Source: Bacteroidales bacterium
GTDB taxonomy: Bacteria; Bacteroidota; Bacteroidia; Bacteroidales; VadinHA17
Assembly: GCA_029932855.1 (NCBI GenBank)
Contig: JAOZPG010000004.1
Coordinates: 49,148-113,147 of the forward strand
Length of the DNA stretch: 64,000 nucleotides
Reading direction: 5' to 3'
The notes under the pieces are model-generated. The model was not told the DNA's origin. It saw only the letters and a program-made list of their open reading frames with translations, and made no database searches. This document shows positions 1,736 to 41,377 of the stretch, in pieces; positions within the stretch are counted from its first letter, which is position 1, and each line of letters begins with the position of its first letter. The position numbers were made by a program, and so were the translations under genes.

Positions 1736-1746
1736 TATTGCAGATA

Positions 1747-3453
1747 TCAATATCCTACGGCATTTCCTCCACGACGCTTATCGGCTGAGCCATAATACAT
1801 ACCATTTTCGGGATCGATATAGATCATCTGTACACCCCCGAAGAACAAGTCTATCCCATCATATACCCTGAGGCTGTGTCCCATTTCCTCCAGCTTCTTT
1901 CTTACTTCAGGTTTTATTCCCGATTCTAAATAAAGGAAATCTTCACTATCCCTTAGAAAAAAACGGGGAGCAAGATTAGCTTCTTCAACATTCATGTTAT
2001 AATCTATTATGTTTATTACTACTTCAATAAGGGTACTTATAATTCTTGCAGCACCGGGAGAGCCGGCTATCAGGAATGGATTTCCGTCTTTTATTATGAT
2101 AGTAGGCATAATTGAGCTTCTCGATTGCTTCCCATCTTTAAATAAGTTTATACTTTTTTTATTGTAATATGAAAAATTGGTCATTGCACAGTTAAACAAT
2201 ACCCCCTCAACAGTCTGACCCGATCCGAAAAATAAACCTAAGGTTTGGGTAAGGGCTACAGAATTACCATCTTTATCAATTATAGAAATATGTGTAGTGT
2301 GCCCGTCATACATTGACTCATCATCATCTGTCATGTGTTTGTCGCTTTCTTTAAGGAATGGGAATGGATTTCCTTCTACTACATCACGGTATCTTGGAGG
2401 ATCCAGTTTATCCATATTTATATGTTCAAAACGTTCCCTGGCATATTCTTTGGAAAGCAAAGCTGAAATTGGGATATTGGCTATCCTGGGGTCTCCCAGG
2501 TAGGCCGTCCTGTCGGCGTAAACAAAAAGTATTGCTTCAGCCATCAAATGTAATATCTTTGCCGATTCGCTATAATGGGGAGCATTTTGGAGATCATAAT
2601 TTTCAATTATATTTAATGCTTCTATCAGGCTTAAACCCGACTGGGGAGCATTAGCTGAAAGGATGTCGTAATTCCTGTATGTTCCGTGAAGCGGTTTTGT
2701 AAATTGAGCTTCATATGAGGAAAAATCATTTAAAGAAAGTACACCACCACGATCGGCAACACCCTTAACCATCGAAGCTGCAAGTGGTCCTTCATAGAAA
2801 GCTTCAGGCCCCTGACTGGCGATTATTGATAATGTTCTTGCCAGTTCTTTTTGTACAATCAGGTCACCTTCCATAAGAGGAAATCCATCTTCAAGGAATA
2901 TTTTCATTGTGGCCGTATCAGTGCTTATAGCATCTATCCTGTCAAGGATGAGCCTGGCAAGTGTGGGGTCAACAGCAAATCCTTCAGATGCTAACCTGAC
3001 TGCCGGTTCAAGAACCTTTGCAAAAGGCAGGCTGCCAAACTTTTCATGAGCCATGGCTAATCCGGCTACGGTACCCGGAACGCAAATTGATTTTGCAGTA
3101 AAAGCGTCTTTTTTACCTGAATAACCTGCCTGAGATGCATTTTCAGATGCCCTGGCATAGTAATTTATATAATAAGATTCATGTCTTTCTTTAAGGTAAA
3201 CAAGCATTCCGCCGCCACCTCCAAGGCCGGAGCCATCCGGTTCAACTACCCCAATGGCAAAAGCAGCTGCAACTGCTGCATCTATGGCATTCCCTCCGCT
3301 TTTTAGCATTTCTAAAGCAGCTTCAGTAGCAAGAGGATGAGCAGTCGCAACCATTCCATTTTTCCCAAAAGGAATTTCCTGGGAAACGGCATCAGTAATA
3401 AATCCTGCCAGTACTATAAGCAGAAGAAGCAAAGCTGTTTTTAATTTTTTCAT
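1747..3453 (-). CDS. ggt: Gamma-glutamyltranspeptidase (GGT/CapD family), secreted
   Basis: Signal peptide MKKLKTALLLLLIVLAGF. GGT-family collinearity includes GSGLGGGGGM and the autoprocessing/catalytic Thr context DGHTTHISIIDKDGN. The ATG at 3453 is preferred over the TTG at 3486. Confidence 0.9.
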   Translation of the reverse strand: MKKLKTALLLLLIVLAGFITDAVSQEIPFGKNGMVATAHPLATEAALEMLKSGGNAIDAAVAAAFAIGVVEPDGSGLGGGGGMLVYLKERHESYYINYYARASENASQAGYSGKKDAFTAKSICVPGTVAGLAMAHEKFGSLPFAKVLEPAVRLASEGFAVDPTLARLILDRIDAISTDTATMKIFLEDGFPLMEGDLIVQKELARTLSIIASQGPEAFYEGPLAASMVKGVADRGGVLSLNDFSSYEAQFTKPLHGTYRNYDILSANAPQSGLSLIEALNIIENYDLQNAPHYSESAKILHLMAEAILFVYADRTAYLGDPRIANIPISALLSKEYARERFEHINMDKLDPPRYRDVVEGNPFPFLKESDKHMTDDDESMYDGHTTHISIIDKDGNSVALTQTLGLFFGSGQTVEGVLFNCAMTNFSYYNKKSINLFKDGKQSRSSIMPTIIIKDGNPFLIAGSPGAARIISTLIEVVINIIDYNMNVEEANLAPRFFLRDSEDFLYLESGIKPEVRKKLEEMGHSLRVYDGIDLFFGGVQMIYIDPENGMYYGSADKRRGGNAVGY

Positions 3454-3813
3454 AACAATGAAATTAGATAAAATAATCTTAAGCAAAACGGGTATGAATA
3501 ATTATCTGTAAAAATATATATCAGTTTTTTCAAAAGATATGCCAAATATTGTATGCATATGAACATGAACAAGATGGAGCTAATGGTCCTGGAATAATGA
3601 GACAAAAAGACCCATTAAAGGGGATTACATTACTCAATAGCTTATTAGCAATTAGAAGTCTATAGTCTTAAATTTATTTTTTAAAATAAATAATTAGCTT
3701 TATAAATACAGTATATTACTGGCTGTTAAGCATACATATTAGTATTCATTAGTTTGTCAGCTCCAAACAATGGTACGTTTTTTGGTTATCATGCTACTTT
3801 ATTTATTGAATTT

Positions 3814-4761
3814 ATGTGTCAAAAAATTTCATTAGTAATTCTTCTGATTATACTCGGTAGTTCCCGGCTTATTTTATCTCAGGAGTTTATCGCCGGGGAA
3901 ATGGATAGTGATGATAGTTATGTAGAATATCTTCAGGGTGATTTGCCCTTAATTATTTCAGTTCCTCACGGCGGATATATGAAACCTGATGATATTCCCG
4001 AGCGGGTGGGAAGGTTTGCAAAGAACCAGGATATATACACTATAGAGATAGCCTATAGAATGATAAGAAAGATACATGAATTATCAGGCAAATATCCTTA
4101 TGTTGTTATTAACCATTTACACAGAACCCGTTTGGATGCCAATAGAAATATAGAGGAAGCGGCCAACGGTAATAAGAAGGCCGAAAAAGTATGGTATGAA
4201 TATCATAACAGGATAAAAAGTATAAGAGAGGAAATAATTAATGAGTATGGAAAGGGTCTTTTTATTGACCTTCATGGACATAGGCATAAAATTGAGCGTA
4301 TTGAGCTGGGTTATGCCTTAAGCGGGGAGGAATTACGTTTGGATGAAGATTTGCTGAATAGTGGTCTGGCCGGTGAGTTCAGCAGTATAAAAAATCTGCT
4401 GGCTGATAATATCCGGGCTTTATCCTTTACCGAAGTTATCAGGGGGGACTATAGTCTTGGCTCCCTGCTTATGGAAAAGGGTCAGGTCACTGTGCCAAGT
4501 AAGGAAATACCTTTTCCCAGGTCTTCGGAGCCATTTTTTAGAGGGGGTTACAATATTTCAACATATGGATCTTCAGGAGGGGGTACAATTGACGGAATAC
4601 AAATAGAAATAGACCTTCATACCCGCAGTGATAAAGAATTGCAGAAGAAAGTTGCTGATGATATTGCACGTAGCTTACTGGAATTTCTTTCAATTCATTA
4701 TTTCCCTGATATTATGAATATCTCTGTCAAAGAAATTTCAATCCCGGATACTTCTTATTAA
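3814..4761 (+). CDS. Secreted N-formylglutamate amidohydrolase (FGase)-fold zinc hydrolase-like protein
   Basis: Signal peptide starts at ATG 3814 (MCQKISLVILLIILGSS). Motifs SVPHGGY..DIPER, LHRTRLDANRN and FIDLHGHRH resemble the FGase-family H / R-x-D-x-NR / DLH pattern. Confidence 0.55.
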   Translation: MCQKISLVILLIILGSSRLILSQEFIAGEMDSDDSYVEYLQGDLPLIISVPHGGYMKPDDIPERVGRFAKNQDIYTIEIAYRMIRKIHELSGKYPYVVINHLHRTRLDANRNIEEAANGNKKAEKVWYEYHNRIKSIREEIINEYGKGLFIDLHGHRHKIERIELGYALSGEELRLDEDLLNSGLAGEFSSIKNLLADNIRALSFTEVIRGDYSLGSLLMEKGQVTVPSKEIPFPRSSEPFFRGGYNISTYGSSGGGTIDGIQIEIDLHTRSDKELQKKVADDIARSLLEFLSIHYFPDIMNISVKEISIPDTSY

Positions 4762-4963
4762 ATGGTAACTTTGAATGAAGGAAGATATATGCCCGGCATA
4801 TGGGCTAAATTAACACAGAGACACTAATTAATTGCACGATTACAATAAGTTAACACATAGGTTATCAGCATATTGATTAGAATGGTATGTATTTTGGAAT
4901 TTAATAGTAAATCTTTTAGAGAGCTATTAATTATTATTGAATGAAAACCTGAATAAGATATAT

Positions 4964-6229
4964 ATGAGTTTTGAGCTGATCATTCTGTTGTTAATGCTTG
5001 CAAGCTTTGCATTAAGTGTGTTTGTTTTGAAGATGCCTGCAGGCGTTTCTCTTATTATTGCCGCATTGGTCGGAGCCCTTGTTGATGGTCATGGGATACC
5101 TGTGTCACATCTGGTGGAAGGAGGTTTTGGCTTTATGGAAGCTATATTGATAATTGCCACTGCTATGATATTTATGAAAATAATGGAGGCAAGTGGTGTC
5201 CTTACCCAGATTAGCCTTGGTATTATAAAAGCTTTTCATAAAAAGCCGACCATTTTAATAATTGTAATAATATTGTTTATTATGTTCCCGGGAATGTTAA
5301 CCGGCCTGTCTTCAACATGCGTTCTTACTACAGGTGTCCTGGTTGCCCCGATTCTTTTAGCAATTGGTGTTCCAAGGCTGGCTGCAGGATCGCTTATTGC
5401 CATGGCTGCTGTTTTCGGAGAAGTTGCTCCCCCAATAAGTATTCCTGTAATGATAATTGGAGGCGGGGTAGACATGCCTTATATAGGGTTTACGGTCCCT
5501 TTATTACTTGTTTCTTTGCCAGCTGCATTATTTACTGCCATATATTTCAGAATAAAATTTGTGAAGAAGATAGATATAGAAGAAGTATTAAAAAAACTCA
5601 GCTCACTGGATAAAAAGAAAAGAGGATTTGTAGTATATATACCTTTGATTTTTGTTATTTTTTATATGATTGGAGAAATAGTTTTTCATGATTATGTTTT
5701 ACATCTGGGAGTTCCTCTGATATTTACCATAGGAGCGATCCTGGGTATTATTTTTTCTCCTAAGACTCCCCTGATAAAAGTTTCAAGGGAAGCTTTGAGA
5801 ATGGCCTTACCCGTAATTGTAATTCTTGTTGGGGTTGGCATGTTTCTTCAGATATTAACTCTTACAGGAGTGAGGGGATACCTTGCTGTTTCAGCACTTC
5901 AGCTACCGGATGCGGTTAAATATATGGCTGCATCATTAATGCCATTTATGGGCTCTGCATATGCGTCGGCATCAGTTATCGGCGTTCCGCTTGTTTATGT
6001 GTTTATTGGGAAAAGTGCCATAGTTGTTACCGCATCCCTGGTTATGATGGCATCTCTGGGAGACCTAATGCCACCTCCTTCCCTTCTATGTGCATATGCT
6101 GCCCAGACAGTACAGGAAGAAAACCATTTTAAAATTTTGAAACAAAGTCTTATCCCTATAGCTTTTTCAATGATAACAGCACTAATTGTTTTAATTTTTG
6201 CAGAGGAAATATCAAGCTTTATTTTCTAA
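4964..6229 (+). CDS. Polytopic permease, DctM-like (TRAP large-subunit / ion-transporter superfamily), no DctP/DctQ partner nearby
   Basis: About 12 predicted TM helices over ~420 aa. The central segment (IMEASGV....GMLTGLSSTCVLTTGVLVAPILLAIGVP) parallels the DctM pattern. The ATG at 4964 is preferred over the TTG at 4937. Confidence 0.5.
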   Translation: MSFELIILLLMLASFALSVFVLKMPAGVSLIIAALVGALVDGHGIPVSHLVEGGFGFMEAILIIATAMIFMKIMEASGVLTQISLGIIKAFHKKPTILIIVIILFIMFPGMLTGLSSTCVLTTGVLVAPILLAIGVPRLAAGSLIAMAAVFGEVAPPISIPVMIIGGGVDMPYIGFTVPLLLVSLPAALFTAIYFRIKFVKKIDIEEVLKKLSSLDKKKRGFVVYIPLIFVIFYMIGEIVFHDYVLHLGVPLIFTIGAILGIIFSPKTPLIKVSREALRMALPVIVILVGVGMFLQILTLTGVRGYLAVSALQLPDAVKYMAASLMPFMGSAYASASVIGVPLVYVFIGKSAIVVTASLVMMASLGDLMPPPSLLCAYAAQTVQEENHFKILKQSLIPIAFSMITALIVLIFAEEISSFIF

Positions 6230-6395
6230 TTAATTTTTTCTATGCTTTATATTATATATACAATAATCTTGCTTTATGTCACAGTTATACTTGGCATAGA
6301 GTTTTATAATGAAAAGAAATGGAAGATGCAGATTGCTATAGCTTTTGTTCTTCTGATATTTGTTCTTAGAATATTGCAAATCAAATAGATGGAAC

Positions 6396-7523
6396 ATGAT
6401 TAAGAAACATCATATTTCAGCCTTTATAATTGTAGTTTTTACAGTCTTAATAGCAATTATTGCTTCTGCGGAGTTTCGCAAACAAAAAATTCCTGAAGCT
6501 TTATACCCGAGCAAAGGTTTAAGCAGCAAAGGAATGTTAAGCGATTATTTTGCCGGAATAAAGGATACGAATGGAGATACGGAAGTATATTTTTTCGACA
6601 GCGGAAAACCTGGAGCAACTGTTTTCCTTGCAGGAGGGACTCATCCAAATGAGCCGGCAGGCTATATGGCCAGTGTTGTTATTCTGGAGAACCTTATTCC
6701 TGAAAAGGGCAGGGTGATAATCATTCCACGACTAAACAATTCAGGATTTACATGTACAGATCCCATGGAAGCATATCCACACGGATTTACTATAGAAACA
6801 GGAACTACAAGCCGCAGGTTCAGGTTTGGATCCAGGGGAGCAAATCCTCTTGACCAGTGGCCTGATCCACTTGTATATGTTCATAAACCTTCAGGTCAGC
6901 AATATTCCGGACTGGAATCCAGGAATCTTAACCGGTCATATCCGGGTGATCCGGATGGTACTTTTACAGAAAAAGTGGCATTTGCGATTATTCAGTTACT
7001 TAAAGAAGAGAATGTTGATATAGCATATGATCTTCACGAGGCCGCACCTGAGATTCCTATAATAAATGCTATTGTATATCATGAAAAAGCAGAAGATATT
7101 ACAATGTATTCTATTCTTGAACTTGAAATGGAAGGGCTTCAGTATGCTCCGGAATTATCTCCCAAAAATTTTCATGGTTTAAGTCACCGCGAATGGGGAG
7201 ATTATACACAGGCATATGCTTTTTTGATGGAAACAAGCAGCCCCGTTCAGGGCAGGCTTAGAGGAAAAACAAATGAAGAGCTGGTTCTTAAGGGACTTAG
7301 CAAAAATTATAAAACAGCAAAAGAAACAGAGGCATTAAGAATAGTTTACCGCGATGAAGGGGAACCTCTTGAACACAGGGTAGGAAGACATATGTCGGGA
7401 TTTTTGGCAATAATCGATTCATATAATGAGCTTAATCCTGAAAAACAGGTGAAGGTATCAGGATTGCCTGACCATAGTGATCTTGTTGAGAACGGGATAG
7501 GGAAATATTTAAATAATAAATAG
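6396..7523 (+). CDS. Succinylglutamate desuccinylase/aspartoacylase-like (M14-type) zinc hydrolase, signal-anchored
   Basis: N-terminal hydrophobic anchor (ISAFIIVVFTVLIAIIASA). An HxxE zinc motif sits in FLAGGTHPNEPAGY, with a downstream His in YDLHEAAPE. This is typical of the AstE/AspA M14-like family. Confidence 0.6.
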   Translation: MIKKHHISAFIIVVFTVLIAIIASAEFRKQKIPEALYPSKGLSSKGMLSDYFAGIKDTNGDTEVYFFDSGKPGATVFLAGGTHPNEPAGYMASVVILENLIPEKGRVIIIPRLNNSGFTCTDPMEAYPHGFTIETGTTSRRFRFGSRGANPLDQWPDPLVYVHKPSGQQYSGLESRNLNRSYPGDPDGTFTEKVAFAIIQLLKEENVDIAYDLHEAAPEIPIINAIVYHEKAEDITMYSILELEMEGLQYAPELSPKNFHGLSHREWGDYTQAYAFLMETSSPVQGRLRGKTNEELVLKGLSKNYKTAKETEALRIVYRDEGEPLEHRVGRHMSGFLAIIDSYNELNPEKQVKVSGLPDHSDLVENGIGKYLNNK

Positions 7524-7533
7524 TTTTAAAATT

Positions 7534-8085
7534 ATGAAGAAGCAAACATTTAAGTTTATAGGATTAATTGCGTTTAGCGTAATAATGTTTTCATTTACAT
7601 TTGATTCAGTGCAGTTTGAACAGCCGGTTTTAATCACTTCAGCTGGTCAGAGTGCTGATGTTAAATTAGTAAAACTGCTTGCATCCAGGCAAAAGCTGGA
7701 TGCTGAGACCATACTTATGGCCAGGCCTGCAGATCTGGGAAATATAAAAACATTAATCATTGTTCCGGGTTTTAGTTCAAAAGGACTTGGAGCTGCAGGT
7801 ATCAGTCAGAAAGATGAGATGAAACGTGTTGAGGCCCTGGTGAAGGCTGCAAATGAAAGTGGCATACCAATAGTAATGATGCATATAGGCGGTAAGGCCC
7901 GCCGGGGAGGGCAGTCGGATGGTTTTTGCAGATTAATTGCTGAGAACAGCAAGACTATGATCGTTGTTGAGCAGGGAAATGAAGATGAGTTTTTTACAAA
8001 AATATCGGAAGATAAAGAAATTCCTATGGTGTCTGTAGAAAAAATAAGTCAGGCTGCCGAACCATTAGGCAAATTATTCAAATAA
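7534..8085 (+). CDS. Signal-anchored 183-aa protein of unknown function, first gene upstream of pgsB in the same operon
   Basis: The ORF starts with ATG and has an N-terminal hydrophobic segment (FIGLIAFSVIMFSF). The rest shows an alternating alpha/beta-like pattern. It lies 10 bp after the upstream gene and 16 bp before pgsB. I recognise no catalytic motif. Confidence 0.6.
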   Translation: MKKQTFKFIGLIAFSVIMFSFTFDSVQFEQPVLITSAGQSADVKLVKLLASRQKLDAETILMARPADLGNIKTLIIVPGFSSKGLGAAGISQKDEMKRVEALVKAANESGIPIVMMHIGGKARRGGQSDGFCRLIAENSKTMIVVEQGNEDEFFTKISEDKEIPMVSVEKISQAAEPLGKLFK

Positions 8086-8101
8086 ATTCCCGTCCAGAAA
8101 C

Positions 8102-9250
8102 ATGATTTATGCATATATTCTTATCTGCATTTTATTTGCATGGCTGATTATTGAAGCAATCAGGACAGAACAGAGTATAAGAAAGATAGACCTAAAAATT
8201 CATGTTAATGGTACCAGGGGTAAATCGAGTATTACAAAATATATCTTAGCGGCACTCCAGGGTTCCGGTATCAGGTCACTGGGAAAAGTTACGGGCGAGC
8301 TTCCTACACTGATTTATTTTGATGGTAATCATCTTCCTATAAAAAGATTCTTTCCGGCCAGGGTCAACGAACAGTTCAGGATAATAAGAAAGGCCAGCAG
8401 GCTGGAGGCCAAGGCTCTTGTTCTTGAGTGTATGTCGATAGATCCGGCCCTGCAAAAGCTTGAAAGCAGGTTTTTCAAGCCGGATATATATATTGTTTCC
8501 AATATAAGAGATGATCACAGGGAAAAGATAGCTGCCGGCCGGGAGGAGAGAGCTGAATCTTATTGCCAGGCAATACCTGAGAATTGCAAGTTGGTAACTG
8601 CTGATATTGAGAATATTGATTATATAAAAAGGGAGGCAGAGAAAAAAAACTGCAGACTGATAATTCCGCAAGAACTAGATGAAGAGATATTGAAGACACT
8701 TCCTTTTGGAGTATTTGCCGATAATATTCAAATTGCACTAGAAGTGGCTGAACTGGCGGGTATAGGCAGGGATAAAGCCCTGAATTCTATTTTAACAAGT
8801 CTTGATAAGGCTGAAAAATATTTAAAACAATCGAAAGCAGCTAAGAAAACTTATAATTTCCTCAATGCCTTTTCAGTAAATGATACTGATTCAGCCAATG
8901 AATACCTTGATTACTGGCTTGACCGTTCAGGACTTAGCGGGAATTATGCTTTTATTTTCAATACCAGGGCAGACAGGCCGACCAGGACCCAATTATTTAC
9001 TGAATGGATCAAAGAGCGACAGGAGCAATGTAAGCTGGTAGTTATTACGGGTGATCATAAAGAATGGGCTTACAGACAACTAAAATGTCTCAGGCCGGAT
9101 ACTGAACTTATGAAGATAAGGTCAATCAATATAAATACTTTACCGGCTCTGATAGAAGGCCTTGATTTAGCACTTGATCTTATAATCGGAATAGGAAATA
9201 TTGGAGGAGATGGATACCGGATATTGAAAGAATTTAAAAGTGCATCATGA
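8102..9250 (+). CDS. pgsB: Poly-gamma-glutamate synthase, Mur-ligase-like subunit PgsB/CapB
   Basis: An N-terminal TM helix precedes the P-loop HVNGTRGKSS. The protein is collinear with Bacillus PgsB through ECMSIDP, NIRDDH, FADNIQIALEVA, NAFSVND, NTRADRPTRTQ and GIGNIGG. Its 382 aa length is similar to PgsB. Confidence 0.9.
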   Translation: MIYAYILICILFAWLIIEAIRTEQSIRKIDLKIHVNGTRGKSSITKYILAALQGSGIRSLGKVTGELPTLIYFDGNHLPIKRFFPARVNEQFRIIRKASRLEAKALVLECMSIDPALQKLESRFFKPDIYIVSNIRDDHREKIAAGREERAESYCQAIPENCKLVTADIENIDYIKREAEKKNCRLIIPQELDEEILKTLPFGVFADNIQIALEVAELAGIGRDKALNSILTSLDKAEKYLKQSKAAKKTYNFLNAFSVNDTDSANEYLDYWLDRSGLSGNYAFIFNTRADRPTRTQLFTEWIKERQEQCKLVVITGDHKEWAYRQLKCLRPDTELMKIRSININTLPALIEGLDLALDLIIGIGNIGGDGYRILKEFKSAS

Positions 9251-9672
9251 TAATTGAATTATTCCTGATAGGTTTAATAGTTGGATTCCTGTTTTATGAA
9301 TTTGTGGGGATATCTCCCGGAGGTGTGGTTGCTCCGGCTTATTTTGCCTTATTTATTTTTCAGCCTGAAAAGATTCTTGTTACCCTGGTGCTCTCGCTGA
9401 TTATTTTTTATATAATGAAATTTCTTTCTTCCCGCTTAATATTATTTGGAAGGAGAAAACTGCTTATTGCTCTGGTTCTTGGTTTTCTCTTAAAGCTTGC
9501 CATAGATTTTCTAATACAACCACTGCCGGTAATAAAGATAGATCTGCAATCTATTGGCTATATTATTCCCGGACTTATTGCCCATGAAATGTCACGCCAA
9601 AAAGTTTTTCCTACGATATTTTCTATTGCCATAGTAACGCTTATTACCTACTTAATTGCCTTGATGTTGTGA
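9247..9672 (+). CDS. pgsC: Poly-gamma-glutamate synthase membrane subunit PgsC/CapC
   Basis: A 141-aa protein with 4 TM helices. It is collinear with Bacillus PgsC (GGVVAPAY, LFGRRK, LKLAIDF, IIPGLIA). An ATGA start/stop overlap joins it to pgsB. Confidence 0.9.
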   Translation: MIIELFLIGLIVGFLFYEFVGISPGGVVAPAYFALFIFQPEKILVTLVLSLIIFYIMKFLSSRLILFGRRKLLIALVLGFLLKLAIDFLIQPLPVIKIDLQSIGYIIPGLIAHEMSRQKVFPTIFSIAIVTLITYLIALML

Positions 9673-10757
9673 TGGGGAAATCCTTAAATACAAGATTGTT
9701 TGTGGTCTTTTGCATTTTCCTTGCGGGCTTTATGCTTACTAATCACAAATTTATAAGAAACCGGTCTTTTTATTATAGCAGGTCTATGCATAAGGCTGTT
9801 GAGTTGTCACAAGCATGGTTTGATATTATTGCACGGGAAAAGGGAAAAAGAGGAATAATTTCGGATGTAAATTCGAAAGTATTGAATAATCATATGATTG
9901 GAGATGATTATACTTATATTACTACTACCCTTGGGTCTCTAAGTTCCAAGGAGATATCTACGAATCCTGATTTTGCTGCCTTAATAGTGCGCCTCCTTAA
10001 AGAGGCTGGTATTGAACCCGGGGATAAAGTGGGACTGATCATGTCAGGTTCTTTCCCGGCTCTTGCTGTTTCTTCCCTGGCAGCATTACAAGTTATGGGA
10101 TTAGAGACTGTTCTTATGAGTTCATTAGGGGCATCGACTTATGGGGCTAATCAGGAAATGGCTACATGGATTGACATTGAGAGTTGGCTTTCACAGTACG
10201 GTGGATTAAAATACAGATCGGTTGTAGTTACGCTGGGAGCTGAAAATGATGCCGGTGAGGGATTGTCAGATGAAGGGCTAAGCATAATGAGAAATGCTAT
10301 TTCCCGGAATCAATATAATCTGTATATTCCTGGTTCACTTGAGGAATCAATCCGGCATAAGTTTGATATTTTTTCTTCTGCAGGCATTGACATTCTTATT
10401 AATATCGGAGGTAACCAGTCTGCCCTGGGAGGATGCACTCATGCTTCCGGTCTTCCAAACGGGCTGTACAAAGATCTAGTGCTGTGTAATGATCCGGACC
10501 GTGGCCTGATACAGGAAATGATTGCAAAAGATGTGCCTGTAATAAACTTATTGAATATAAAGGACCTGGCTTCAAACTATGGAATTGACCTCTTACCCGG
10601 TGTTACTTATTCTGGTTCAACAAAATTGTTTATTGAGCAGGAAGTAAATAAAAATGCTGTTTTAATAACTTTACTGGTTGGGATCTTAAGTATAATAATC
10701 CTTTTTCCTTTAAAGAATTTTTTTAGAGAGACTGTAAATAATGCAAATAAATTTTAA
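9669..10757 (+). CDS. Third PGA-locus membrane protein, not PgsA/CapA; probably the 'poly-gamma-glutamate system protein' family of PgsA-less loci
   Basis: Its start overlaps the pgsC stop (GTGA; an alternative ATG lies at 9672). TM helices sit at both ends around a ~300-aa domain. I recognise no CapA metallophosphatase motifs. The family assignment rests on position and architecture. Confidence 0.5.
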   Translation: MMGKSLNTRLFVVFCIFLAGFMLTNHKFIRNRSFYYSRSMHKAVELSQAWFDIIAREKGKRGIISDVNSKVLNNHMIGDDYTYITTTLGSLSSKEISTNPDFAALIVRLLKEAGIEPGDKVGLIMSGSFPALAVSSLAALQVMGLETVLMSSLGASTYGANQEMATWIDIESWLSQYGGLKYRSVVVTLGAENDAGEGLSDEGLSIMRNAISRNQYNLYIPGSLEESIRHKFDIFSSAGIDILINIGGNQSALGGCTHASGLPNGLYKDLVLCNDPDRGLIQEMIAKDVPVINLLNIKDLASNYGIDLLPGVTYSGSTKLFIEQEVNKNAVLITLLVGILSIIILFPLKNFFRETVNNANKF

Positions 10758-10758
10758 G

Positions 10759-12015
10759 ATGTTAAAAAAGATATTTATAACTTTTTCTGTTCTGACACTG
10801 TTTGCATTGTCAGAAGCGGATAGTCAGACATATACCGGGGACATTGAAGTATATATAAATACATTTATAGACAATATGCCGGGCCGGGACGGGAATGATT
10901 ATACGATCCCTGGAGAAAATGAACTTACTATCTGGGCTGACATGTTAAGTGATCTGCTGGATGATGAGCTAACAAATGCAAGGCAGAAAGCCTCGCAAAT
11001 TAATTATCAGATCGTTGAATTTGCAGATAACAGTGTAACGCCTAATGCCTCATACTATGTAATTGAAGAAAAAGCAGACAGGCAGCATTACTGGGGCACA
11101 TATATAATTAACCGCTTTCCTTTACGTAGTCAGTTAGTTATACAGGCCCCTCATCCGCTTTATGATTTTAATACCGGAAAGCAGGGGATATTCTGTTTTA
11201 AGAGACTGGGGGCCCAGGCCTTTTTTATAAGTGGGACACATAGATGTAACAGCGACAATGCATCTCCATGCTCGGGAACAACAAGCGCATGTAGTGCCAG
11301 CCCGGCTTCCTACAGGCTTTCTGATAATCCTCATAATCTGCAATCTGTTTTTCAGAAAACAACTGAGATAATATATGATAAGATGAGTAATACTTATTTT
11401 GTTCAGCTTCATGGTTTTGCAAAGGGAGCAGGTGATCCATATCTTATTATGAGCAATGGAACCAGGGATACACCTGATCCTGACTATATCCCGGTTTTGA
11501 AGAATGAGCTTTACAGAATTGACAACACTCTTACATTTAAGATTGCGCATATAGATATCTCCTGGTCAAGACTTTTGGCGTTTACAAATGTGCAGGGCCG
11601 TTATATCAATAACTCCATTTTTCCCTGCAGCCAGAATGCAACACAAAGCAGTGGGAGGTTTATACATTTAGAACAGGAAAGGGAAAGACTCAGAGCAAAT
11701 ATTTTTGGTTGGCTTAAAATGTATGAGGCCCTGGGCAATACTTTTCCTGAAAGCTCATCTTATTCGGAAGGATTGTCAGTGAATCAGGGGGATGACATTA
11801 TTATTTATACAAGGCCTTCCCTGGGATTAATAAATATCAAAGCATCTGCTCCTTTTACATATTCAGTTTATAATCTTTCAGGAAAATGTATTTATCATGC
11901 CTCTTCAACGGAAGAGCTTGCCAGTATAGGAACAGAAAGCCTGATTCCGGGACTTTATCTCGTGAAGGTAAGGACCAATAAATCAGTCGGTACACAAAAA
12001 GTCATAATAGAGTAA
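10759..12015 (+). CDS. T9SS-exported protein with FGase/PghP-like zinc-hydrolase-fold N-domain (candidate PGA depolymerase)
   Basis: Signal peptide MLKKIFITFSVLTLFALS. Motifs IQAPHPLYDFNTGKQG and VQLHGF echo the PHGG / LHG pattern of the 3814 gene. The C-terminus is a Por/T9SS sorting domain (SVYNLSGKCIY....GLYLVKVRT....QKVIIE). An alternative ATG lies at 10741. Confidence 0.55.
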   Translation: MLKKIFITFSVLTLFALSEADSQTYTGDIEVYINTFIDNMPGRDGNDYTIPGENELTIWADMLSDLLDDELTNARQKASQINYQIVEFADNSVTPNASYYVIEEKADRQHYWGTYIINRFPLRSQLVIQAPHPLYDFNTGKQGIFCFKRLGAQAFFISGTHRCNSDNASPCSGTTSACSASPASYRLSDNPHNLQSVFQKTTEIIYDKMSNTYFVQLHGFAKGAGDPYLIMSNGTRDTPDPDYIPVLKNELYRIDNTLTFKIAHIDISWSRLLAFTNVQGRYINNSIFPCSQNATQSSGRFIHLEQERERLRANIFGWLKMYEALGNTFPESSSYSEGLSVNQGDDIIIYTRPSLGLINIKASAPFTYSVYNLSGKCIYHASSTEELASIGTESLIPGLYLVKVRTNKSVGTQKVIIE

Positions 12016-12016
12016 G

Positions 12017-13555
12017 CTATATCGCTCCCTGGTATGCAGCATAACCAGGATTTTGTTCATCCCTGATATTTGGATTTGCATCCATTTCCGGTTGAGGAAT
12101 AGGATACACAACCTTGTGGAAATTCTCATCATTACGACCATTAACCGGATCGATGCTAAGCGGAACGGGATGAGAGCTGTCTCGTGTAAATGATCTGCCT
12201 TTTCTAAGATAGTCGTAAAGTTCATGACCTTCAAGAGCCAGTTCTCTTCGCCTTTCATTAAATATTTCAGTTTTAAGAGCAGGTCCCGTAAGGCTTGTAA
12301 GTGTTGAGTCTGTACGTGCCTGGAAAACTTTATTCAGGTATGTGAGTGCTTCTGTATCATGACCATCAAGCTCAGAGTATGCTTCTGCTGCAATAAGCAG
12401 TATCTCAGGCAGACGAATATAAGCTACATCGTGGACCAAAGGGGATTCAACACCCGGATATTTATGATAAGCCCTTGCAGAATATTCGGGATCACCAGGC
12501 TGGCTCGATGGAGAACTGGTTTTATCTTCCTTAAACAATTCATTTCTGATATCTTCATCGGCAAACAGGTTAATAAATGCATTTGAAGCTCCATAGTCAC
12601 CATAGCCAACAGAATTCACATCTATACGTCCCTCGGAATTTACAGACCTGACAGAATAATAAGCAATACAACTTGTACCAAGGTTATCATTCAGATCGTA
12701 ATAGAGTTCAAAGACTGCTTCACTGTTAAACCTTTCTATCAGGCTTCTGATATATTCAGGTTTTTCTATCATGTTTCCACCAAGAGATTCTGCCATCAGG
12801 GCTGCATCAGCAGCTAACTGCCAGTCTTCATTATACAAATATACCTTTGCCAGTATACCCCAGAGGGCTTGTTCTGTAAGATACTGTTTGTTGACTTTGC
12901 TTTTATCAATAAGCTCTATTGAACTATTGAGTAACTCAATAACATAGTCATAACAGTTATCAAGGCTTTCTCTTCCCGGAGGATTTTCAATGGCATTGGA
13001 ATTATCAAGATTGCTTTTCAGCAGGGGAACACCCATGCTGTACAGATCATCATCCCTGGCCATCCATGGAGGGTAGCAAAAAGCCTTTAGCAGTTCAAGA
13101 TAAGAGATTGCCTTAATGGCCTTTGCCTGGGCAAGCATATGATCTTTAATATTATTATCTCCTTCCAGATCGGGAATAACCGAAATAACAGAGTTGCAGT
13201 TTGCAATGGTTTTGTATGAATAATTCCATAAATAACCAGCATAACCAGCTCTTGAAGATATTTCTCCATATTTATATTCAAGGTCAAAACGCCTATTGGG
13301 ATTCTCAACAAAATGAAAGAAATCGGCTGCTTTCAATGATCCTCTAAGGGGAACGGTTCTACCTAGGAAAGATCCTTCGGAAAGAAGGTCATACAAAGCC
13401 GTTATAGTCATCTGTGCATATTCCACATCCGAGAATAATTGTTCGGCAGTAAGAGCATTGTCGGGATACCTGTCAAGAAAATCTTCACAGCCTGAAGATA
13501 CTAACAGGAGCAGGCTAATTAATGCAGCAAGTATTTTTGTATTTAAAGTCTTCAT
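12017..13555 (-). CDS. SusD/RagB-family outer-membrane lipoprotein
   Basis: Lipobox LLLVSSGCEDF. SusD-like TPR-rich composition and a conserved C-terminal region (ERRRELALEGHELYDYLR). It lies immediately downstream of the SusC-like gene. Confidence 0.85.
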   Translation of the reverse strand: MKTLNTKILAALISLLLLVSSGCEDFLDRYPDNALTAEQLFSDVEYAQMTITALYDLLSEGSFLGRTVPLRGSLKAADFFHFVENPNRRFDLEYKYGEISSRAGYAGYLWNYSYKTIANCNSVISVIPDLEGDNNIKDHMLAQAKAIKAISYLELLKAFCYPPWMARDDDLYSMGVPLLKSNLDNSNAIENPPGRESLDNCYDYVIELLNSSIELIDKSKVNKQYLTEQALWGILAKVYLYNEDWQLAADAALMAESLGGNMIEKPEYIRSLIERFNSEAVFELYYDLNDNLGTSCIAYYSVRSVNSEGRIDVNSVGYGDYGASNAFINLFADEDIRNELFKEDKTSSPSSQPGDPEYSARAYHKYPGVESPLVHDVAYIRLPEILLIAAEAYSELDGHDTEALTYLNKVFQARTDSTLTSLTGPALKTEIFNERRRELALEGHELYDYLRKGRSFTRDSSHPVPLSIDPVNGRNDENFHKVVYPIPQPEMDANPNIRDEQNPGYAAYQGAI

Positions 13556-13571
13556 TTTTTCTTAATAAATA

Positions 13572-16500
13572 TTAAAAACTAAGGTTTACTCCAAAACTGA
13601 ATGTTTGAGGAGGCGGGAAATCATAAACATACCTGTAACCATTAACCCTTATCTCGGGATCAAAATTTGGCATTTCTGTAAGTACGAACAGATTCTCTGC
13701 CTGGAAATATATCTTACAGGCAGATATTTTCAGCTTGCTTACCATGTTTGAGGGGATTCTGTAGCTAAGCTTTATATTTTTCATCTTAAAGTAGTCTCCA
13801 TCATATGCATAGCGGGTGGAAAAGCCACTTGAGTTAGCAGTGCTTCCATTCCACCTTATGGGATTAGCTGCTGAAGTGTTATGAGGTGTCCAGCTATCCA
13901 GCTGGGAAGTTTCTGCGTTAAGATTTGCCTGTTGTCCGTCTGTCTGAGTGTATCTGCTGGCACAATAATCGAGGGTGTAGAAATCCAGACCAAAAGAGAA
14001 AAGCATATCCAGGTCAAAGTTCCTGTATTTAAGAAGTGAAGAAATACCCCCGTAATATTTAGGTTCACGGGTTCCTATGATTTGTCTGGTTGCTTCTCCA
14101 TAACTATAAGTAATTTGCTTCTCCCCGGTTGTCTCATCAATATGAAACCAGGTGGGACTACCGGTTTCGGGATCAACCCCGGCATATTCAGGAAGGTATA
14201 AAGAGCCTTCAGCATAGCCGACTCTGTCGATATTGGTCGTGCCCACATTATCATTAGGAAGTTCAGTTATGATATTTGTAAGAGTTGACAGGTTTAGAAC
14301 CAGGTTCCATGATAATTGATTCATGCGAATGATATTGGCATCAAGGTTATACTCGAAGCCATAATTCTTCATAGCTCCCATATTTACAGTGGCCTGAGTA
14401 AATCCTGTTGTCCGGGAGATTTCACGGTCAAACAGGAGGTCTTTTGCCTGACGGTTATAGTATTCTGCACTAAAAAATATCCTCCCGTCAAGAACTTTTA
14501 TTTCCACGCCAAGGTTTATGTTATTGCTTTGTTCCCAGCTAAGTCCCATGTTGGCAACATTTGTAACCCTGGCACCAGACATATTAAAATAATCATTTCC
14601 AAGGGTATAGTTTCCAAGGTATTCAAACAGACCACCAGGGAGTGTTCCGTTAATACCATAACTGGCACGTATCTTTGCATCATCCAGCCAGGCAAAATCC
14701 ATAAATCTTTCTTCAGAGAGTCTCCATGAACCGGAAACCGAATAAAAATGTCCCCATCGGCTTTCGGGGCCAAACCTTGAAGAAGCATCGGCCCTGTAGC
14801 TTAGCTGAGCATAATATTTATTCTTATAATTATAATTCAGCCTTGATAAAGCTGAAAGCAGGGCATCATCATATGATCTGCCTGTAGCTTCTGTTGGAAT
14901 AGTGCCGGCGCTGAGAATAGGAGTAAGATTTGTTGCATAATTTGTTGATACTGCACCAAGCAAATTTGTATGAGTCCATTCTGCTTCCCATCCTGCAAGG
15001 GCAGAAAAGTTATGCTTCTCATTTATACTTTTGTCAAAATTCATTATAGTTGATGAAGTGAGCCTTCGTCTTTGAGTCTCCAGATCCTGCCTTCTGCCAC
15101 TATATCCGGCAGCAGTTCCGATATCTTTGTTTTCCCATCGTATTTCGTGATTTGGACGGTTATCATAACCAAATGTGGATTTAAGAAAGAGGTCGTCACT
15201 AAAATTTAATTGCAGCCATGCTGTTCCCATGGTCCTGTAGCTGTATGAATTATATATATTCATATCCATTATTGCTATAGGGTTATATCCATTAAGCATA
15301 TTTCCCGGAAGCTGTGTGTTTGGCTCTCCATCAATATATACAGGTACAACAGAAGGGATATTTGCTGCTGCCCTAAGGGGATTGGCATACAGATTTCCCT
15401 GCAGGGGGCCATTCTGATTATAATATGACATTGCCATATTAATGCCAAGCCATATTGTTTTATTTGTTTTCGAGATTAAATTCAAACGGCCGGAGAAACG
15501 AGTAAGATCAGAACCTATAATTGTACCTGTTTGCTTGAAATATTCTCCGGATGTGAAAAAAGTAAGACCGTTCTGACCACCGGATGCAGACAGATTTACT
15601 TTTTGTGTGCCACCGGGTTGTGAAACCACATCATACCAATTGGTATTGGGGTATTTATCATAACCGTCTCCCCAGAAGTCGTACTCAGTGCCATTTATAG
15701 CATAGGCGGAATTAAAACTCGCCCTTGCCATATCAAGGTAATAGTTATAAGTATTCTCATTATCATAACTGTTCTTAATGTATTCAATGGGACTTAGTCC
15801 CGTAAAAATGGCATCCATGGCCATTACCCTGTGTAGTTCACCGGTAACCCATAGTTCTGCAAACTCATCCTTATTTGCCATGGGTTTAGTATATAGTCCG
15901 TTTGCAATACCTACCTGTACATCGAGATTAAACTTTGTTTGGCCTTCCTTACCCTGTTTGGTGGTTATTAATATTACTCCGTTTGCTGCCCGTGATCCGT
16001 AAAGTGCAGAAGCAGCAGCATCTTTTAGAACGGTAATGCTTTCAATATCACTGGGATTAATGCTTGCCATGGCGTTGCCATCTGTTGCGCTGAACTGGAC
16101 CAGGTCGCTCATATTTACTGCTATCCCATCAATAACATATAAGGGAGAGAGAGAAGCGTTAACCGAACCTGTTCCCCTTATTCTTACAACTTCCCCGTCG
16201 CCGGGCTGACCGGATGTGGCGATGGCAACACCAGTAGTATTGGCAGCAAGAGCGGCAGTAAATGAAGAAACAGGCCTGCTTTCCAGTTTATCAGCTTTTA
16301 CAACACTGGCCGAGCCGGTAAAAGATTCTCTCTTGGTTGTTCCGTATGCTACTACCATTACCTCGGACAGCTTTTTTGAATCTTCCATCAGGATAACAGA
16401 TATATCCTGTTCGCCATTAATCTTAAGTTCTTTGGTTTTCATTCCCACATATGAGAAAACCAGTATGTCACCTATGGAAACTTCAATTGAGAAATGACCG

Positions 16501-23194: not shown

Positions 23195-23197
23195 ATA

Positions 23198-36494: not shown

Positions 36495-36499
36495 GATTT

Positions 36500-37186: not shown

Positions 37187-37211
37187 GATTTATTTATTTT
37201 GTCTTTAGGCT

Positions 37212-37973: not shown

Positions 37974-38056
37974 TAGTATTGGTAAGATTTTTGGGGTTTT
38001 ATATATTTAAACAGAGAAACGTACAGAAAATTGCAGGATAAACCATAATAATATAC

Positions 38057-41376: not shown

Positions 41377-41377
41377 T

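Follow-up and report, generated by a model that had tools for sequence, protein, structure and literature searches.

The 64,000-nucleotide stretch of DNA analysed here (the window) raises the question of what a poly-gamma-glutamate (PGA) synthase without PgsA does in a Bacteroidales genome, and which of the neighbouring genes work with it. A sequence-only reading had described a packed unit of six genes, and all six open reading frames were confirmed on the plus strand (6360/6396-7523, 7534-8085, 8102-9250, 9247-9672, 9669-10757 and 10741/10759-12015). The junctions were exactly as claimed, with gaps of 10 nt (7523/7534) and 16 nt (8085/8102), 4-nt overlaps at the frames starting at 9247 (ATGA) and 9669 (GTGA), and 1 nt between the TIGR04332 gene and the T9SS gene (10757/10759). 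The run itself, however, starts further upstream. The permease gene (4937-6229) comes first; 12 nt behind it lies a frame for a 48-aa protein (6242-6388), absent from the earlier gene list, and a further 7 nt separate this frame from the start at 6396. Because these two genes adjoin the six, the tightly packed run begins at the permease (4937) and comprises at least eight genes. The assignment to a Bacteroidota-type genome fits the SusC/SusD genes, the two T9SS tails and the nearest relatives, which were Bacteroidota MAGs throughout.

The identity of the synthase was examined with curated family models. PgsB (8102..9250, plus strand), a predicted membrane-anchored, ATP-dependent amide ligase of the Mur-ligase fold, scored 260.7 bits against TIGR04012 (cut-off 222.7) over residues 6-376 of 382, and a Mur_ligase_M domain was detected. 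Its translation carries the P-loop VNGTRGKSS followed by ECMSIDP, NIRDDH, FADNIQIAL, NAFSVND, RADRPTRTQ and GIGNIGG. PgsC (9247..9672, plus strand), its small polytopic membrane partner, scored 117 bits against TIGR04011 (cut-off 96.45) and 117.5 bits against PF14102 (Pfam CapC), with the motifs GGVVAP, FGRRK and IIPGLIA. Every motif from which the sequence-only reading had named these two genes was thus found in the translations, and the family-model scores that it had set as a test lay above the equivalog cut-offs for both.

The third gene (9669..10757, plus strand), which had been held not to encode a CapA/PgsA-type protein, indeed belongs to TIGR04332, 'poly-gamma-glutamate system protein' (283 bits, cut-off 100), a family known from PgsA-less loci. 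The protein is named 'PgsF' in one preprint. A search with the PGA_cap/CapA model gave no match in any window frame of at least 150 aa. Start and stop codons of the pgsB, pgsC and TIGR04332 genes overlap, and a natural PgsC-TIGR04332 fusion protein exists (P0412). The TIGR04332 protein has hydrophobic helices at residues 5-29 and 325-353, and its AlphaFold model (pLDDT 89.8, pTM 0.85) places an alpha/beta domain between these N- and C-terminal membrane helices; comparison with the PDB by fold and by sequence gave no significant match. Within this domain, a Cys256/His258 pair and Cys273 are invariant among homologues, as the residues of an active site might be. At 50% identity the family falls into 1057 clusters. 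We suggest that this protein occupies the place of PgsA/CapA in the synthase locus. Since the curated HMM scores exceed the trusted cut-offs, the matches of PgsB, PgsC, the TIGR04332 protein and the T9SS domain are not due to chance.

To see how far the arrangement extends, we compared 80 loci chosen by similarity to the Bacteroidota TIGR04332 protein, with the Fusobacterium and Leptospira type left out. Core genes were counted in the 60 loci whose sequence reaches 7 kb or more upstream of the TIGR04332 gene, and flanking genes in the 24 loci from Bacteroidota in which both flanks are covered. The core consists of permease, AstE-like protein, DUF6305 protein, gamma-glutamyltransferase (GGT), PgsB, PgsC and TIGR04332 protein, each present in at least 56 of the 60 loci. 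It is collinear in Bacteroidota, Ignavibacteriota, Zixibacteria, Krumholzibacteriota, Marinimicrobia, Lentisphaeria and Calditrichota, and the same genes stand in rearranged order in Bacillota. The survey of related genomes that had been proposed therefore revealed conserved synteny from Bacteroidota to Bacillota. In Bacteroidota, where most of the loci came from Bacteroidales, there are usually also SusC/SusD, a glutamate racemase with signal peptide, a histidine kinase with a sigma-54 regulator, and promoters of the sigma-54 type. Directly established are the gene identities (by curated models) and the synteny, as well as the predicted locations and promoter motifs given below. We rejected the idea that the frames are decayed or chance look-alikes without a functional system, and consider it exceedingly improbable: all are intact, the HMM matches run end to end over curated cut-offs, homologous loci keep invariant catalytic residues and synteny across phyla, and nothing was found in its support.

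Several of the genes that accompany the synthase encode proteins that may handle gamma-glutamyl compounds or their products. The GGT (1747..3486, minus strand) scored 472 bits against PF01019 and 469 bits against TIGR00066 (cut-off 358), has a hydrophobic N-terminus that may be a signal or anchor, and occurs in 58 of the 60 loci; it is divergently transcribed in the window and lies between the DUF6305 gene and pgsB in most related loci. The permease (4937..6229, plus strand) has hydrophobic segments along its full length and many predicted membrane helices. It resembles the ion-transporter superfamily (DctM/CitMHS-like; PF06808 DctM 25 bits, CitMHS 22 bits), and a homologue is named 'C4-dicarboxylate ABC transporter permease' at NCBI. 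Among the cluster genes it is the best conserved, with 80-87% identity in Bacteroidales relatives, and it is present in 56/60 loci. The AstE-like protein (6396..7523, plus strand; 57/60 loci) is predicted to be a membrane-anchored or secreted zinc amidohydrolase of the M14-like AstE/AspA family. It scored 38.6 bits against PF24827 (cut-off 25), and its family profile matches the solved AstE/AspA structures 2qj8 and 3cdx with E about 1e-12. Residues H83, E86, H214 and E279 (H-x-x-E...H zinc ligands) are invariant in the family, as are R176, N177 and R180. The secreted N-formylglutamate-amidohydrolase-like protein FGl (3754..4761, plus strand), with a signal-like N-terminus, matched PF05013 (FGase) in its N-terminal third only, at 29.4 bits, barely over the cut-off of 28.9; its family profile had no match in the PDB. 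Of 36 Bacteroidota loci, 28 have FGl, and a second paralogue often follows the response-regulator gene. FGl may be a zinc amidohydrolase with N-acyl-glutamate as its substrate. The extracytoplasmic DUF6305 protein (7534..8085, plus strand; PF19823, 176 bits) occurs in 59/60 loci and carries a signal peptide, and the signals of two Bacillota homologues are of the lipoprotein type (e.g. LTAC). Its invariant positions include G38, Q39, D42, K83, H117, G119, G120, R123 and R124. Beyond PF19823, it resembles only dihydropteroate synthase, weakly and locally. The conserved 48-aa protein (6242..6388, plus strand; MLYIIYTIILLYVTVILGIEFYNEKKWKMQIAIAFVLLIFVLRILQIK) has two hydrophobic stretches in a membrane-hairpin-like arrangement. 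By tblastn with the orthologue of the relative L005, more than 40 loci proved to have it between the permease and the AstE-like gene (41-87% identity); a family search with it gave no match. Signal or anchor sequences are thus found on GGT, AstE-like protein, DUF6305 protein and FGl, and also on the racemase and the T9SS cargo protein described below.

The GGT bears on the kind of product that is made. In Bacillus anthracis, the GGT-family transpeptidase CapD attaches PGA to peptidoglycan. A CapD-like role of the GGT, and its place immediately before pgsB in nearly all related loci, would suit a short oligo-gamma-glutamate, transferred by the GGT to a periplasmic or cell-wall acceptor and trimmed by the zinc hydrolases, instead of a free high-molecular-weight capsule or slime. 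The invariant cysteines and histidine of the TIGR04332 domain, and a cluster that encodes no outer-membrane exporter, point the same way. We nevertheless regard such a product as unlikely: PgsB and PgsC pass equivalog models built on polymer-forming enzymes, Fusobacterium nucleatum, which reportedly has a comparable three-gene cluster, secretes PGA, and a secreted T9SS enzyme and SusCD are more in keeping with a substrate outside the cell than with one in the periplasm.

That T9SS cargo protein, T9N (10759..12015, plus strand), consists of a signal peptide, an alpha/beta domain of about 320 aa and a type A C-terminal sorting domain (TIGR04183, 39.3 bits, cut-off 23; PF18962, 32.8 bits). Its family, with more than 860 homologues found, is uncharacterised; H132, D136, H218, H303, E305, E307 and four Cys are invariant. 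Foldseek matched the catalytic domain of its structure model (pLDDT 85) only to the Francisella REP34 carboxypeptidase (4oko), weakly (E 1.6e-4, TM 0.39), and neither sequence nor profile comparison connected it with PghP, FGase or AstE. The fold match and the invariant His, Asp and Glu residues weakly suggest a candidate metallohydrolase. T9N stands directly after the TIGR04332 gene in the window and in six further loci, drawn from two phyla (L005, L028, L042, L045, L063 and L065); these seven include Ignavibacteriota and Melioribacteraceae. In about ten more loci it lies within 10 kb of that gene. The coupling to T9SS cargo that the sequence-only reading had claimed therefore recurs, but it is not obligate, as T9N is also found without pgs genes (L001, L002, L087, L089). 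In Aureibaculum the order is M14 peptidase-SusC-SusD-T9N, and in L087 (a Polaribacter MAG) and L089 it is SusC-SusD-DAP-dehydrogenase-like-Amidohydro_3-racemase-like-T9N. An SDF-family (sodium:dicarboxylate symporter) transporter also accompanies T9N in SusCD loci of this latter kind, and the flavobacterial loci without pgs genes resemble loci for the catabolism of D-amino acids and glutamate.

Envelope and regulatory genes follow T9N. A SusD-family outer-membrane lipoprotein (12017..13555, minus strand; PF07980 and PF14322, lipobox LVSSGC) is encoded convergently with it, one base separating the stop codons, and L005 has the orthologous gene pair in the same arrangement at 70% identity. Next lies a SusC/RagA TonB-dependent outer-membrane transporter (13572..16730, minus strand; TIGR04056, 784 bits); SusC-type transporters are importers. 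A MurI-like glutamate racemase (20631..21614, plus strand) scored 64 bits against TIGR00067, under the cut-off of 147, and has the motifs DSGLGG, ACNT and NCSH; these and the signal-like N-terminus are kept in most of 32 cluster-linked homologues. As it carries a Sec signal peptide, it is predicted to be periplasmic. A histidine kinase (21659-23194, plus strand; Pfam HisKA, HATPase_c) and an NtrC-type sigma-54-dependent response regulator (23198-24565, plus strand; Pfam Response_reg, Sigma54_activat, HTH_8) come after it. Among the 24 fully flanked Bacteroidota loci, kinase and regulator occur in 21, the racemase in 20 and SusC in 19. A sigma-54-type promoter-like motif, TGGCATATCTTTTGA (3530..3544, minus strand), lies 58 nt upstream of the GGT start and matches 8/10 specified consensus positions; the near-identical TGGCACATCTTTTGA precedes GGT in the closest relatives (L005, L007, L008). 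A weaker one, TGGTATGTATTTTGG (4883..4897, plus strand), lies 54 nt upstream of the permease start and matches 7/10 positions with exact -24/-12 spacing. Both window motifs are imperfect. A better match, TGGCAY-N5-TTTGS, stands at the corresponding place before the permease in 25/59 related loci; of the 300-nt background windows, 5.9% contain one.

T9N, SusC/SusD, racemase and two-component system might instead form a separate locus for acquiring foreign D-glutamate peptides, such as peptidoglycan stem peptides or the PGA of other organisms. On this view the locus just adjoins the pgs operon, and position, not function, would couple it to PGA synthesis. The pgs-free T9N homologues in Aureibaculum, L087 and L089 would agree with this, as would the presence of T9N within 10 kb in only 4 of the 24 fully flanked loci. 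Moreover, 24/36 Bacteroidota loci have a different SusC/SusD pair directly after the TIGR04332 gene, and the window pair differs in type from this usual Bacteroidales pair (24-26% identity). We judge a separate locus quite unlikely, given the direct adjacency of TIGR04332 gene and T9N in seven loci, their 1-nt spacing in the window, the collinear SusCD, racemase and kinase/regulator genes after the synthase (19-21 of 24 loci, several families), and the sigma-54 promoters before the pgs operon in loci having the sigma-54 regulator.

We therefore favour, with a probability of about 0.6, a gamma-PGA synthase coupled to an extracytoplasmic module for gamma-glutamyl turnover and re-uptake; the enzymatic specificities, the polymer itself and the make-then-recover logic we infer from the gene content. 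PgsB would add glutamate through its gamma-carboxyl, with PgsC as membrane partner and the TIGR04332 protein as third, membrane-tethered subunit, and the polymer would arise at the cytoplasmic membrane and leave it on the periplasmic side. The synthase is co-inherited, and here probably largely co-transcribed, with permease, 48-aa protein, AstE-like protein, DUF6305 protein and GGT, a predicted extracytoplasmic or membrane module for processing and salvage. Like Bacillus Ggt and CapD, GGT may remove or transfer gamma-glutamyl units at the amino end. Because gamma-PGA ends, in chemical terms, in an N-acyl-glutamate at its C-terminus, the AstE-like protein and FGl would free glutamate from the carboxyl end, for uptake by the permease. 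Outside the cell, T9N may act on the polymer, SusC/SusD may import the fragments, and the racemase would interconvert D- and L-glutamate in the periplasm. Histidine kinase and sigma-54 activator would drive the operon from the sigma-54 promoters. A locus that makes and degrades a polymer could also serve chain-length control or anchoring instead of recycling.

Comparison with known systems separates what is new from what is not. We found no description of the synthase within a larger cross-phylum cluster of gamma-glutamyl-cleaving enzymes, transporters and regulators, and there appears to be no characterised PGA system from Bacteroidota; a 2013 review lists Fusobacterium nucleatum as the only Gram-negative PGA producer. 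The PgsA-less 'Gram-negative type' trio itself is of a kind already described and automatically annotated, and is named as such by NCBI and JGI in many Bacteroidota MAGs.

Six open reading frames were found between 6396 and 12015, all on the forward strand and with the junctions given by the sequence-only reading. They are separated by 10 nt (7523/7534), 16 nt (8085/8102), and 1 nt ahead of the ATG at 10759, and they overlap by 4 nt at 9247-9250 (pgsB/pgsC) and at 9669-9672 (pgsC and the gene that follows it). If the alternative ATG at 10741 is used, the last gene, which encodes a type IX secretion (T9SS) protein, also overlaps its neighbour. Every residue motif on which the PgsB and PgsC calls had been based was found in the ORF translations, and curated profile models gave the same answer. 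The product of 8102-9250 (+) matched TIGR04012 with 260.7 bits against a cut-off of 222.7, end to end (residues 6-376 of 382) and with the Mur-ligase P-loop VNGTRGKSS intact, and that of 9247-9672 (+) matched TIGR04011 with 117 bits (cut-off 96.45) and PF14102 with 117.5 bits. Since the curated profile scores pass their cut-offs, the two ORFs do not fail the PgsB/PgsC models.

The gene immediately downstream of pgsC on the same strand (9669-10757, +) encodes a member of TIGR04332, the "poly-gamma-glutamate system protein" family (283 bits, cut-off 100). That this third protein is not of the CapA/PgsA type was upheld: it had no CapA-like fold match, and no CapA/PGA_cap domain (PF09587) was detected among window ORFs of at least 150 aa. 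Its AlphaFold model, confident for the domain (pLDDT 89.8), places an alpha/beta domain between terminal membrane helices, in agreement with the helices noted at both ends. A fold search of the PDB with this model gave no significant match (best E 1.6e-3, TM below 0.2), which argues that the protein is unlike CapA or any solved protein, and the family profile found no match among PDB sequences. One homologue, P0412, is a natural fusion of a CapC/PgsC domain (residues 8-124) with a TIGR04332 domain (168-402), which supports physical cooperation of the two. The extensions of other homologues, several of them 546-693 aa long, contained no Pfam domain. The protein had 959 matches in a large protein collection, and an exhaustive search of cluster representatives gave 1057 clusters at 50% identity for the family. 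In Bacteroidota/Bacteroidales MAGs, many of the matches already bear the name "poly-gamma-glutamate system protein" from NCBI or JGI, and the neighbours of one named homologue are annotated as PgsB, PgsC, gamma-glutamyltransferase, and succinylglutamate desuccinylase. Of the retrieved loci in which the three genes could all be detected, nearly all kept the order pgsB-pgsC-TIGR04332. The most economical reading of 8102-10757 is a poly-gamma-glutamate (PGA) synthase of the known PgsA-less type, with polymer production predicted from sequence. The original call is right; at its core it amounts to routine annotation, of a PgsA-less type that was already known.

The tight packing of the six genes held, but the limits set for the unit did not, as two further genes are packed upstream. 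A polytopic permease of the ion-transporter superfamily (4937-6229, +) ends 12 nt before a conserved 48-aa ORF (6242-6388, +), which had escaped the sequence-only reading and lies 7 nt before the ATG at 6396. With the orthologue from the related database locus L005 as query, tblastn placed the small ORF in the same interval, between the permease and AstE-like genes, in more than 40 loci spanning several phyla. Its product has two hydrophobic stretches that resemble a membrane hairpin, and may be either a subunit of the permease or a peptide akin to CapE/PgsE.

The first of the six packed genes (6396-7523, +) encodes a zinc hydrolase of the M14-like AstE/AspA family (PF24827, 38.6 bits; cut-off 25), whose profile matched the solved structures 2qj8 and 3cdx at E about 1e-12. 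Residues H83, E86, H214, and E279, corresponding to the H-x-x-E...H ligands and a downstream Glu, were invariant across 24 sequences. Judged by these sequence features, the protein is a bona fide member of the family. The second gene (7534-8085, +) encodes a DUF6305 protein (PF19823, 176 bits; cut-off 25) with an invariant H-x-G-G-x-x-R-R motif. It is predicted to be extracytoplasmic, having a signal peptide in the window and a lipobox in two Bacillota homologues. A weak local match of DUF6305 to dihydropteroate synthase (E about 2e-4, over a strand-loop-helix segment) was not trusted and is possibly spurious. Upstream of the permease lie a secreted N-formylglutamate-amidohydrolase-like (FGase-like) protein (3754-4761), with a borderline Pfam match and no match of its family profile to PDB sequences, and a divergently transcribed gamma-glutamyltransferase (GGT) gene (1747-3486, -; TIGR00066, 469 bits). 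Kinship among these proteins was also tried: for the T9SS protein with the FGase-like or AstE-like protein, for the latter two with each other, and for DUF6305 with the TIGR04332 protein, the AstE-like protein, or the racemase described below, hhalign aligned only signal-peptide regions.

The conservation of this neighbourhood was assessed in 80 loci from a one-genome-per-species scan, all of which were compared with the window proteins by tblastn. Sixty loci had 7 kb or more of sequence upstream of the TIGR04332 gene; of these, 59 carried DUF6305, 58 GGT, 57 the AstE-like gene, and 56 the permease. The usual order was permease, (48-aa ORF), AstE-like, DUF6305, GGT, PgsB, PgsC, TIGR04332, and it was seen in several Bacteroidota families, Ignavibacteriota, Melioribacteraceae, Zixibacteria, Krumholzibacteriota, Marinimicrobia, Lentisphaeria, and Calditrichota. 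Bacillota (Oscillospiraceae, Peptoniphilaceae) had the same gene set in a rearranged order. The window and its nearest relatives (L005, L007, L008) depart from the usual order only in the GGT gene, which is located upstream on the opposite strand.

We propose, with a probability of roughly 0.6, that the cluster has two halves, a PgsA-less gamma-PGA synthase and a conserved extracytoplasmic module for turnover and uptake of the polymer. The GGT family includes Ggt of Bacillus, which acts on PGA as an exo-gamma-glutamyl hydrolase, and CapD, which anchors and depolymerises the polymer, while the AstE/AspA and FGase families hydrolyse N-acyl-glutamates. Because the carboxyl-terminal residue of gamma-PGA is itself an N-acyl-glutamate, we infer that the AstE-like and FGase-like proteins are plausible exo-acting gamma-glutamyl carboxypeptidases. 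The anchoring activity within the GGT family fits a different outcome as well, in which short gamma-glutamyl chains are moved onto an envelope acceptor; we hold this outcome to be unlikely. In Bacteroidota, the proposed two-part cluster would have gained an outer-membrane importer, a secreted enzyme, and a sigma-54 circuit as additions to its turnover module.

These additions were counted in Bacteroidota loci whose sequence covers both flanks (24 loci). SusD and SusC genes (12017-16730, -; TIGR04056, 784 bits for SusC; SusD Pfam models matched) lie convergent with the T9SS gene. SusC was tied to the pgs core in 19 of the 24 loci, with SusD next to it wherever the sequence reached far enough. 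The adjacent pair, with linked hydrolases and a regulator, gives the window the layout of a SusC/SusD utilisation locus. One base separates the stop codon of the T9SS gene (+) from that of SusD (-) at 12015/12017, which leaves no intergenic room for a terminator between the convergent units. A MurI-like racemase with a Sec-type signal peptide is encoded at 20631-21614 (+). It scored 64 bits with TIGR00067, below the cut-off of 147, and retains the MurI motifs DSGLGG, ACNT, and NCSH, including both catalytic cysteines. The gene was present in 20 of the 24 loci, and most of 32 cluster-linked homologues kept both the motifs and the signal-like N-terminus, whereas cytoplasmic MurI has no signal peptide. 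A periplasmic glutamate racemase, if it is one, would be unusual. Downstream of it, the genes for a histidine kinase and for a sigma-54 activator of the NtrC type (21659-24565) form a pair that recurred in 21 of the 24 loci. The FGase-like gene was found in most Bacteroidota loci; many had a second paralogue after the regulator, at the site that the T9SS gene holds in L004 and L006. Between SusC and the racemase, the window encodes a second T9SS cargo (17327-20497, +; 1056 aa) with choice-of-anchor Q and InlB B-repeat-like domains, and a 55% identical homologue lies at the same place in L005.

In 25 of 59 loci, a sigma-54-type motif, TGGCAY-N5-TTTGS, preceded the permease gene by either 25-55 nt or 113-127 nt; of background 300-nt windows, 5.9% contained it. 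The motif-bearing loci (for example L009, L011, L013, and L040) were almost all from Bacteroidota, and most had the sigma-54 regulator. The window has a weak version upstream of the permease (4883-4897, +; 7 of 10 positions) and a better one upstream of GGT (3530-3544, -; 8 of 10 positions), the latter common to L005, L007, and L008. As predicted sites, these motifs match the cluster's own sigma-54-dependent response regulator. Sigma-70 promoter-like sites (60 versus 54 expected) and intrinsic-terminator-like sites (14 versus 12.5 expected) occurred at chance level in the scan, which is uninformative on operon limits.

Two features of the wider window were also recorded. SpoIIE/PP2C-output sensor proteins flank the glutamate-related island at 158-1735 (+) and 25442-27010 (-), one with Y_Y_Y/Reg_prop domains and the other with dCache and HAMP. 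A surface-glycan cluster at 35448-42550 encodes a NeuB sialic-acid synthase, a CMP-sugar cytidylyltransferase-HAD fusion, a GT52/polysialyltransferase-like protein, a pyruvyl transferase, a GT2, and a glycerophosphotransferase-like protein. Its gene content suggests a capsule or glycan of the sialic-acid (nonulosonic acid) type in the same genome.

The last of the six packed genes (10759-12015, +) encodes a protein with a T9SS type A sorting domain (TIGR04183, 39.3 bits; cut-off 23), whose profile aligned with solved T9SS C-terminal domains (8glk_D, E 3e-9). The N-terminus is a signal peptide (MLKKIFITFSVLTLFALS), and the T9SS machinery genes are located outside the window. The N-terminal 340 residues had no family match. 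The protein's family has more than 860 members, of Bacteroidota type and about 415 aa long, each with a terminal sorting domain. In the confident AlphaFold model (pLDDT 85), the sole solved-structure match of the catalytic domain was 4oko, REP34 of Francisella tularensis (Foldseek E 1.6e-4, probability 0.99); the fit was weak (TM 0.29-0.39, rmsd 12 A, identity 11%), and no kinship was detected at the sequence level. REP34, reportedly characterized as a zinc carboxypeptidase by Feld et al. in 2014, is like the window protein a secreted alpha/beta protein, and the T9SS tail is on the window protein. His132, Asp136, His218, His303, Glu305, Glu307, and four cysteines were invariant in the family and fit a secreted metallohydrolase. 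On these grounds, we infer that the T9SS protein is a candidate secreted hydrolase. Neither it nor the FGase-like protein matched the PghP family (PF05908), even at E up to 10; either may have this activity without belonging to the family. PHROG families gave no match relevant to PGA hydrolases, a fold search of the T9SS protein model against viral structures gave only C-terminal-domain and Ig-like matches, and BLASTP found nothing between the T9SS and FGase-like proteins. Kinship of the T9SS protein to PghP, FGase, or AstE was not demonstrable by sequence or profile.

The proposed coupling of the PGA operon to T9SS cargo stood as a recurrent linkage of genes. A gene of this T9SS family directly follows the TIGR04332 gene in the window and in six other loci (L005, L028, L042, L045, L063, and L065, Ignavibacteriota and Melioribacteraceae included), and lies within 10 kb in about ten more. 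The family also occurs without pgs genes. In Aureibaculum, it follows an M14 peptidase, SusC, and SusD. In two flavobacterial loci, L087 (a Polaribacter MAG, 457-10361) and L089 (1-9245), the order is SusC, SusD, DAP-dehydrogenase-like, Amidohydro_3, a 509-aa racemase-like gene, and the T9SS gene, followed in L087 by a transporter gene of the SDF (sodium:dicarboxylate symporter) family. From their gene content, these pgs-free contexts look like systems for uptake and catabolism of peptides with D-amino acids and glutamate, and the racemase-like and T9SS genes together look like a utilisation module for D-glutamate or D-amino-acid peptides. L005 has a 486-aa gene after its T9SS gene (12442-13902) that is 40% identical to the 509-aa racemase-like gene. 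Such contexts invite the view that the window holds a nutrient locus for foreign D-glutamate peptides that is merely adjacent to the pgs genes. The immediate succession of TIGR04332 and T9SS genes recurs in the six further loci, and we hold this view to be unlikely as well.

A more ambitious form of the turnover proposal, which we offer tentatively, is that PgsA-less systems, instead of being three-gene synthases, are obligate eight-gene "polyglutamate cycle" modules comprising the synthase, GGT, AstE-like carboxypeptidase, DUF6305, permease, and microprotein. Controlled by sigma-54, such modules would first make an extracytoplasmic gamma-glutamyl polymer and later recover it, using it to buffer nitrogen and carbon. 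The Bacteroidota extension would then be the first SusCD/T9SS "utilisation locus" for a polyamide made by the same locus, adding a periplasmic glutamate racemase and, in the T9SS protein, a new family of secreted gamma-glutamyl hydrolases. If polymer is indeed made and recovered in this way, a polyamide joins the substrates of SusCD/T9SS systems, and anaerobic communities may use PGA to store glutamate, whether shared or private.

In the literature searchable outside subscription journals, the eight-gene core, its SusCD/T9SS/racemase/sigma-54 extension, and the small ORF were undescribed; no mention of TIGR04332 or DUF6305 was found, nor any work joining pgsB with Bacteroidetes, and a paper on gamma-PGA in the rhizosphere had no bearing on Bacteroidota. 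To our knowledge, gamma-PGA biology is known almost wholly from Bacillus, with one demonstrated Gram-negative producer. The cluster bears on polyglutamate production by abundant FCB-group bacteria of sediments, digesters, and guts, on the replacement of PgsA, and on how a diderm cell handles the polymer. It provides a testable parts list, in which a third subunit without a solved relative stands beside DUF6305, the 48-aa membrane protein, and the strongly conserved permease. It also suggests how the genes may be regulated, by a sigma-54 activator for which matching promoters are predicted. The candidate gamma-glutamyl hydrolases are of biotechnological interest for tailoring PGA chain length.

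Among known systems, the three-gene PGA cluster of Fusobacterium nucleatum (pgsB-pgsC-third gene) was reportedly described by Candela et al. in 2009, and its third gene is of the family modelled as TIGR04332. The window shares with this type the same three families in the same order, overlapping genes, and the lack of CapA/PgsA, but its host is from another phylum. The window trio sits in a core with the permease, 48-aa, AstE-like, DUF6305, and GGT genes, which in Bacteroidota (mostly Bacteroidales) is joined to SusCD, the putative periplasmic racemase, the sigma-54 two-component system, and a T9SS cargo gene; the likeness to Fusobacterium, which is not represented among the 80 retrieved loci, is drawn on the trio alone. 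A 2025 Cloacimonadota preprint calls the third gene 'PgsF' and CapB-CapC-PgsF the 'typical gene organization' of Gram-negative producers, and CapsuleFinder predicted PGA systems in most phyla.

With pgsBCAE-pgdS of Bacillus subtilis and capBCADE of Bacillus anthracis, the cluster shares the PgsB ligase and its PgsC partner. It also shares cleavage enzymes in or next to the operon, the GGT-family CapD in B. anthracis and the hydrolase PgdS in B. subtilis, so that synthesis and cleavage are co-located in both. A very small membrane peptide is likewise present, CapE/PgsE in Bacillus and the 48-aa ORF here, the likeness being one of size and the ORF lying beside the permease rather than the synthase. 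The PgsA/CapA subunit of Bacillus, in contrast, is replaced by an unrelated protein without a PDB match, the zinc enzymes proposed as hydrolases are M14-like or FGase-like whereas PgdS is of the NlpC/P60 type, and the SusCD and T9SS components are diderm-envelope extras.

The combination of SusCD with secreted or periplasmic hydrolases, an inner-membrane permease, and a sensor/regulator resembles the SusC/SusD polysaccharide utilisation loci and their relatives, such as RagAB of Porphyromonas gingivalis, which handles peptides. The regulator here is an NtrC-type sigma-54 activator, whereas those loci use a hybrid two-component system or an ECF sigma/anti-sigma pair, and the presumed substrate is a polyamide instead of a glycan. 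Unlike those loci, the cluster itself encodes the synthase of its presumed substrate.
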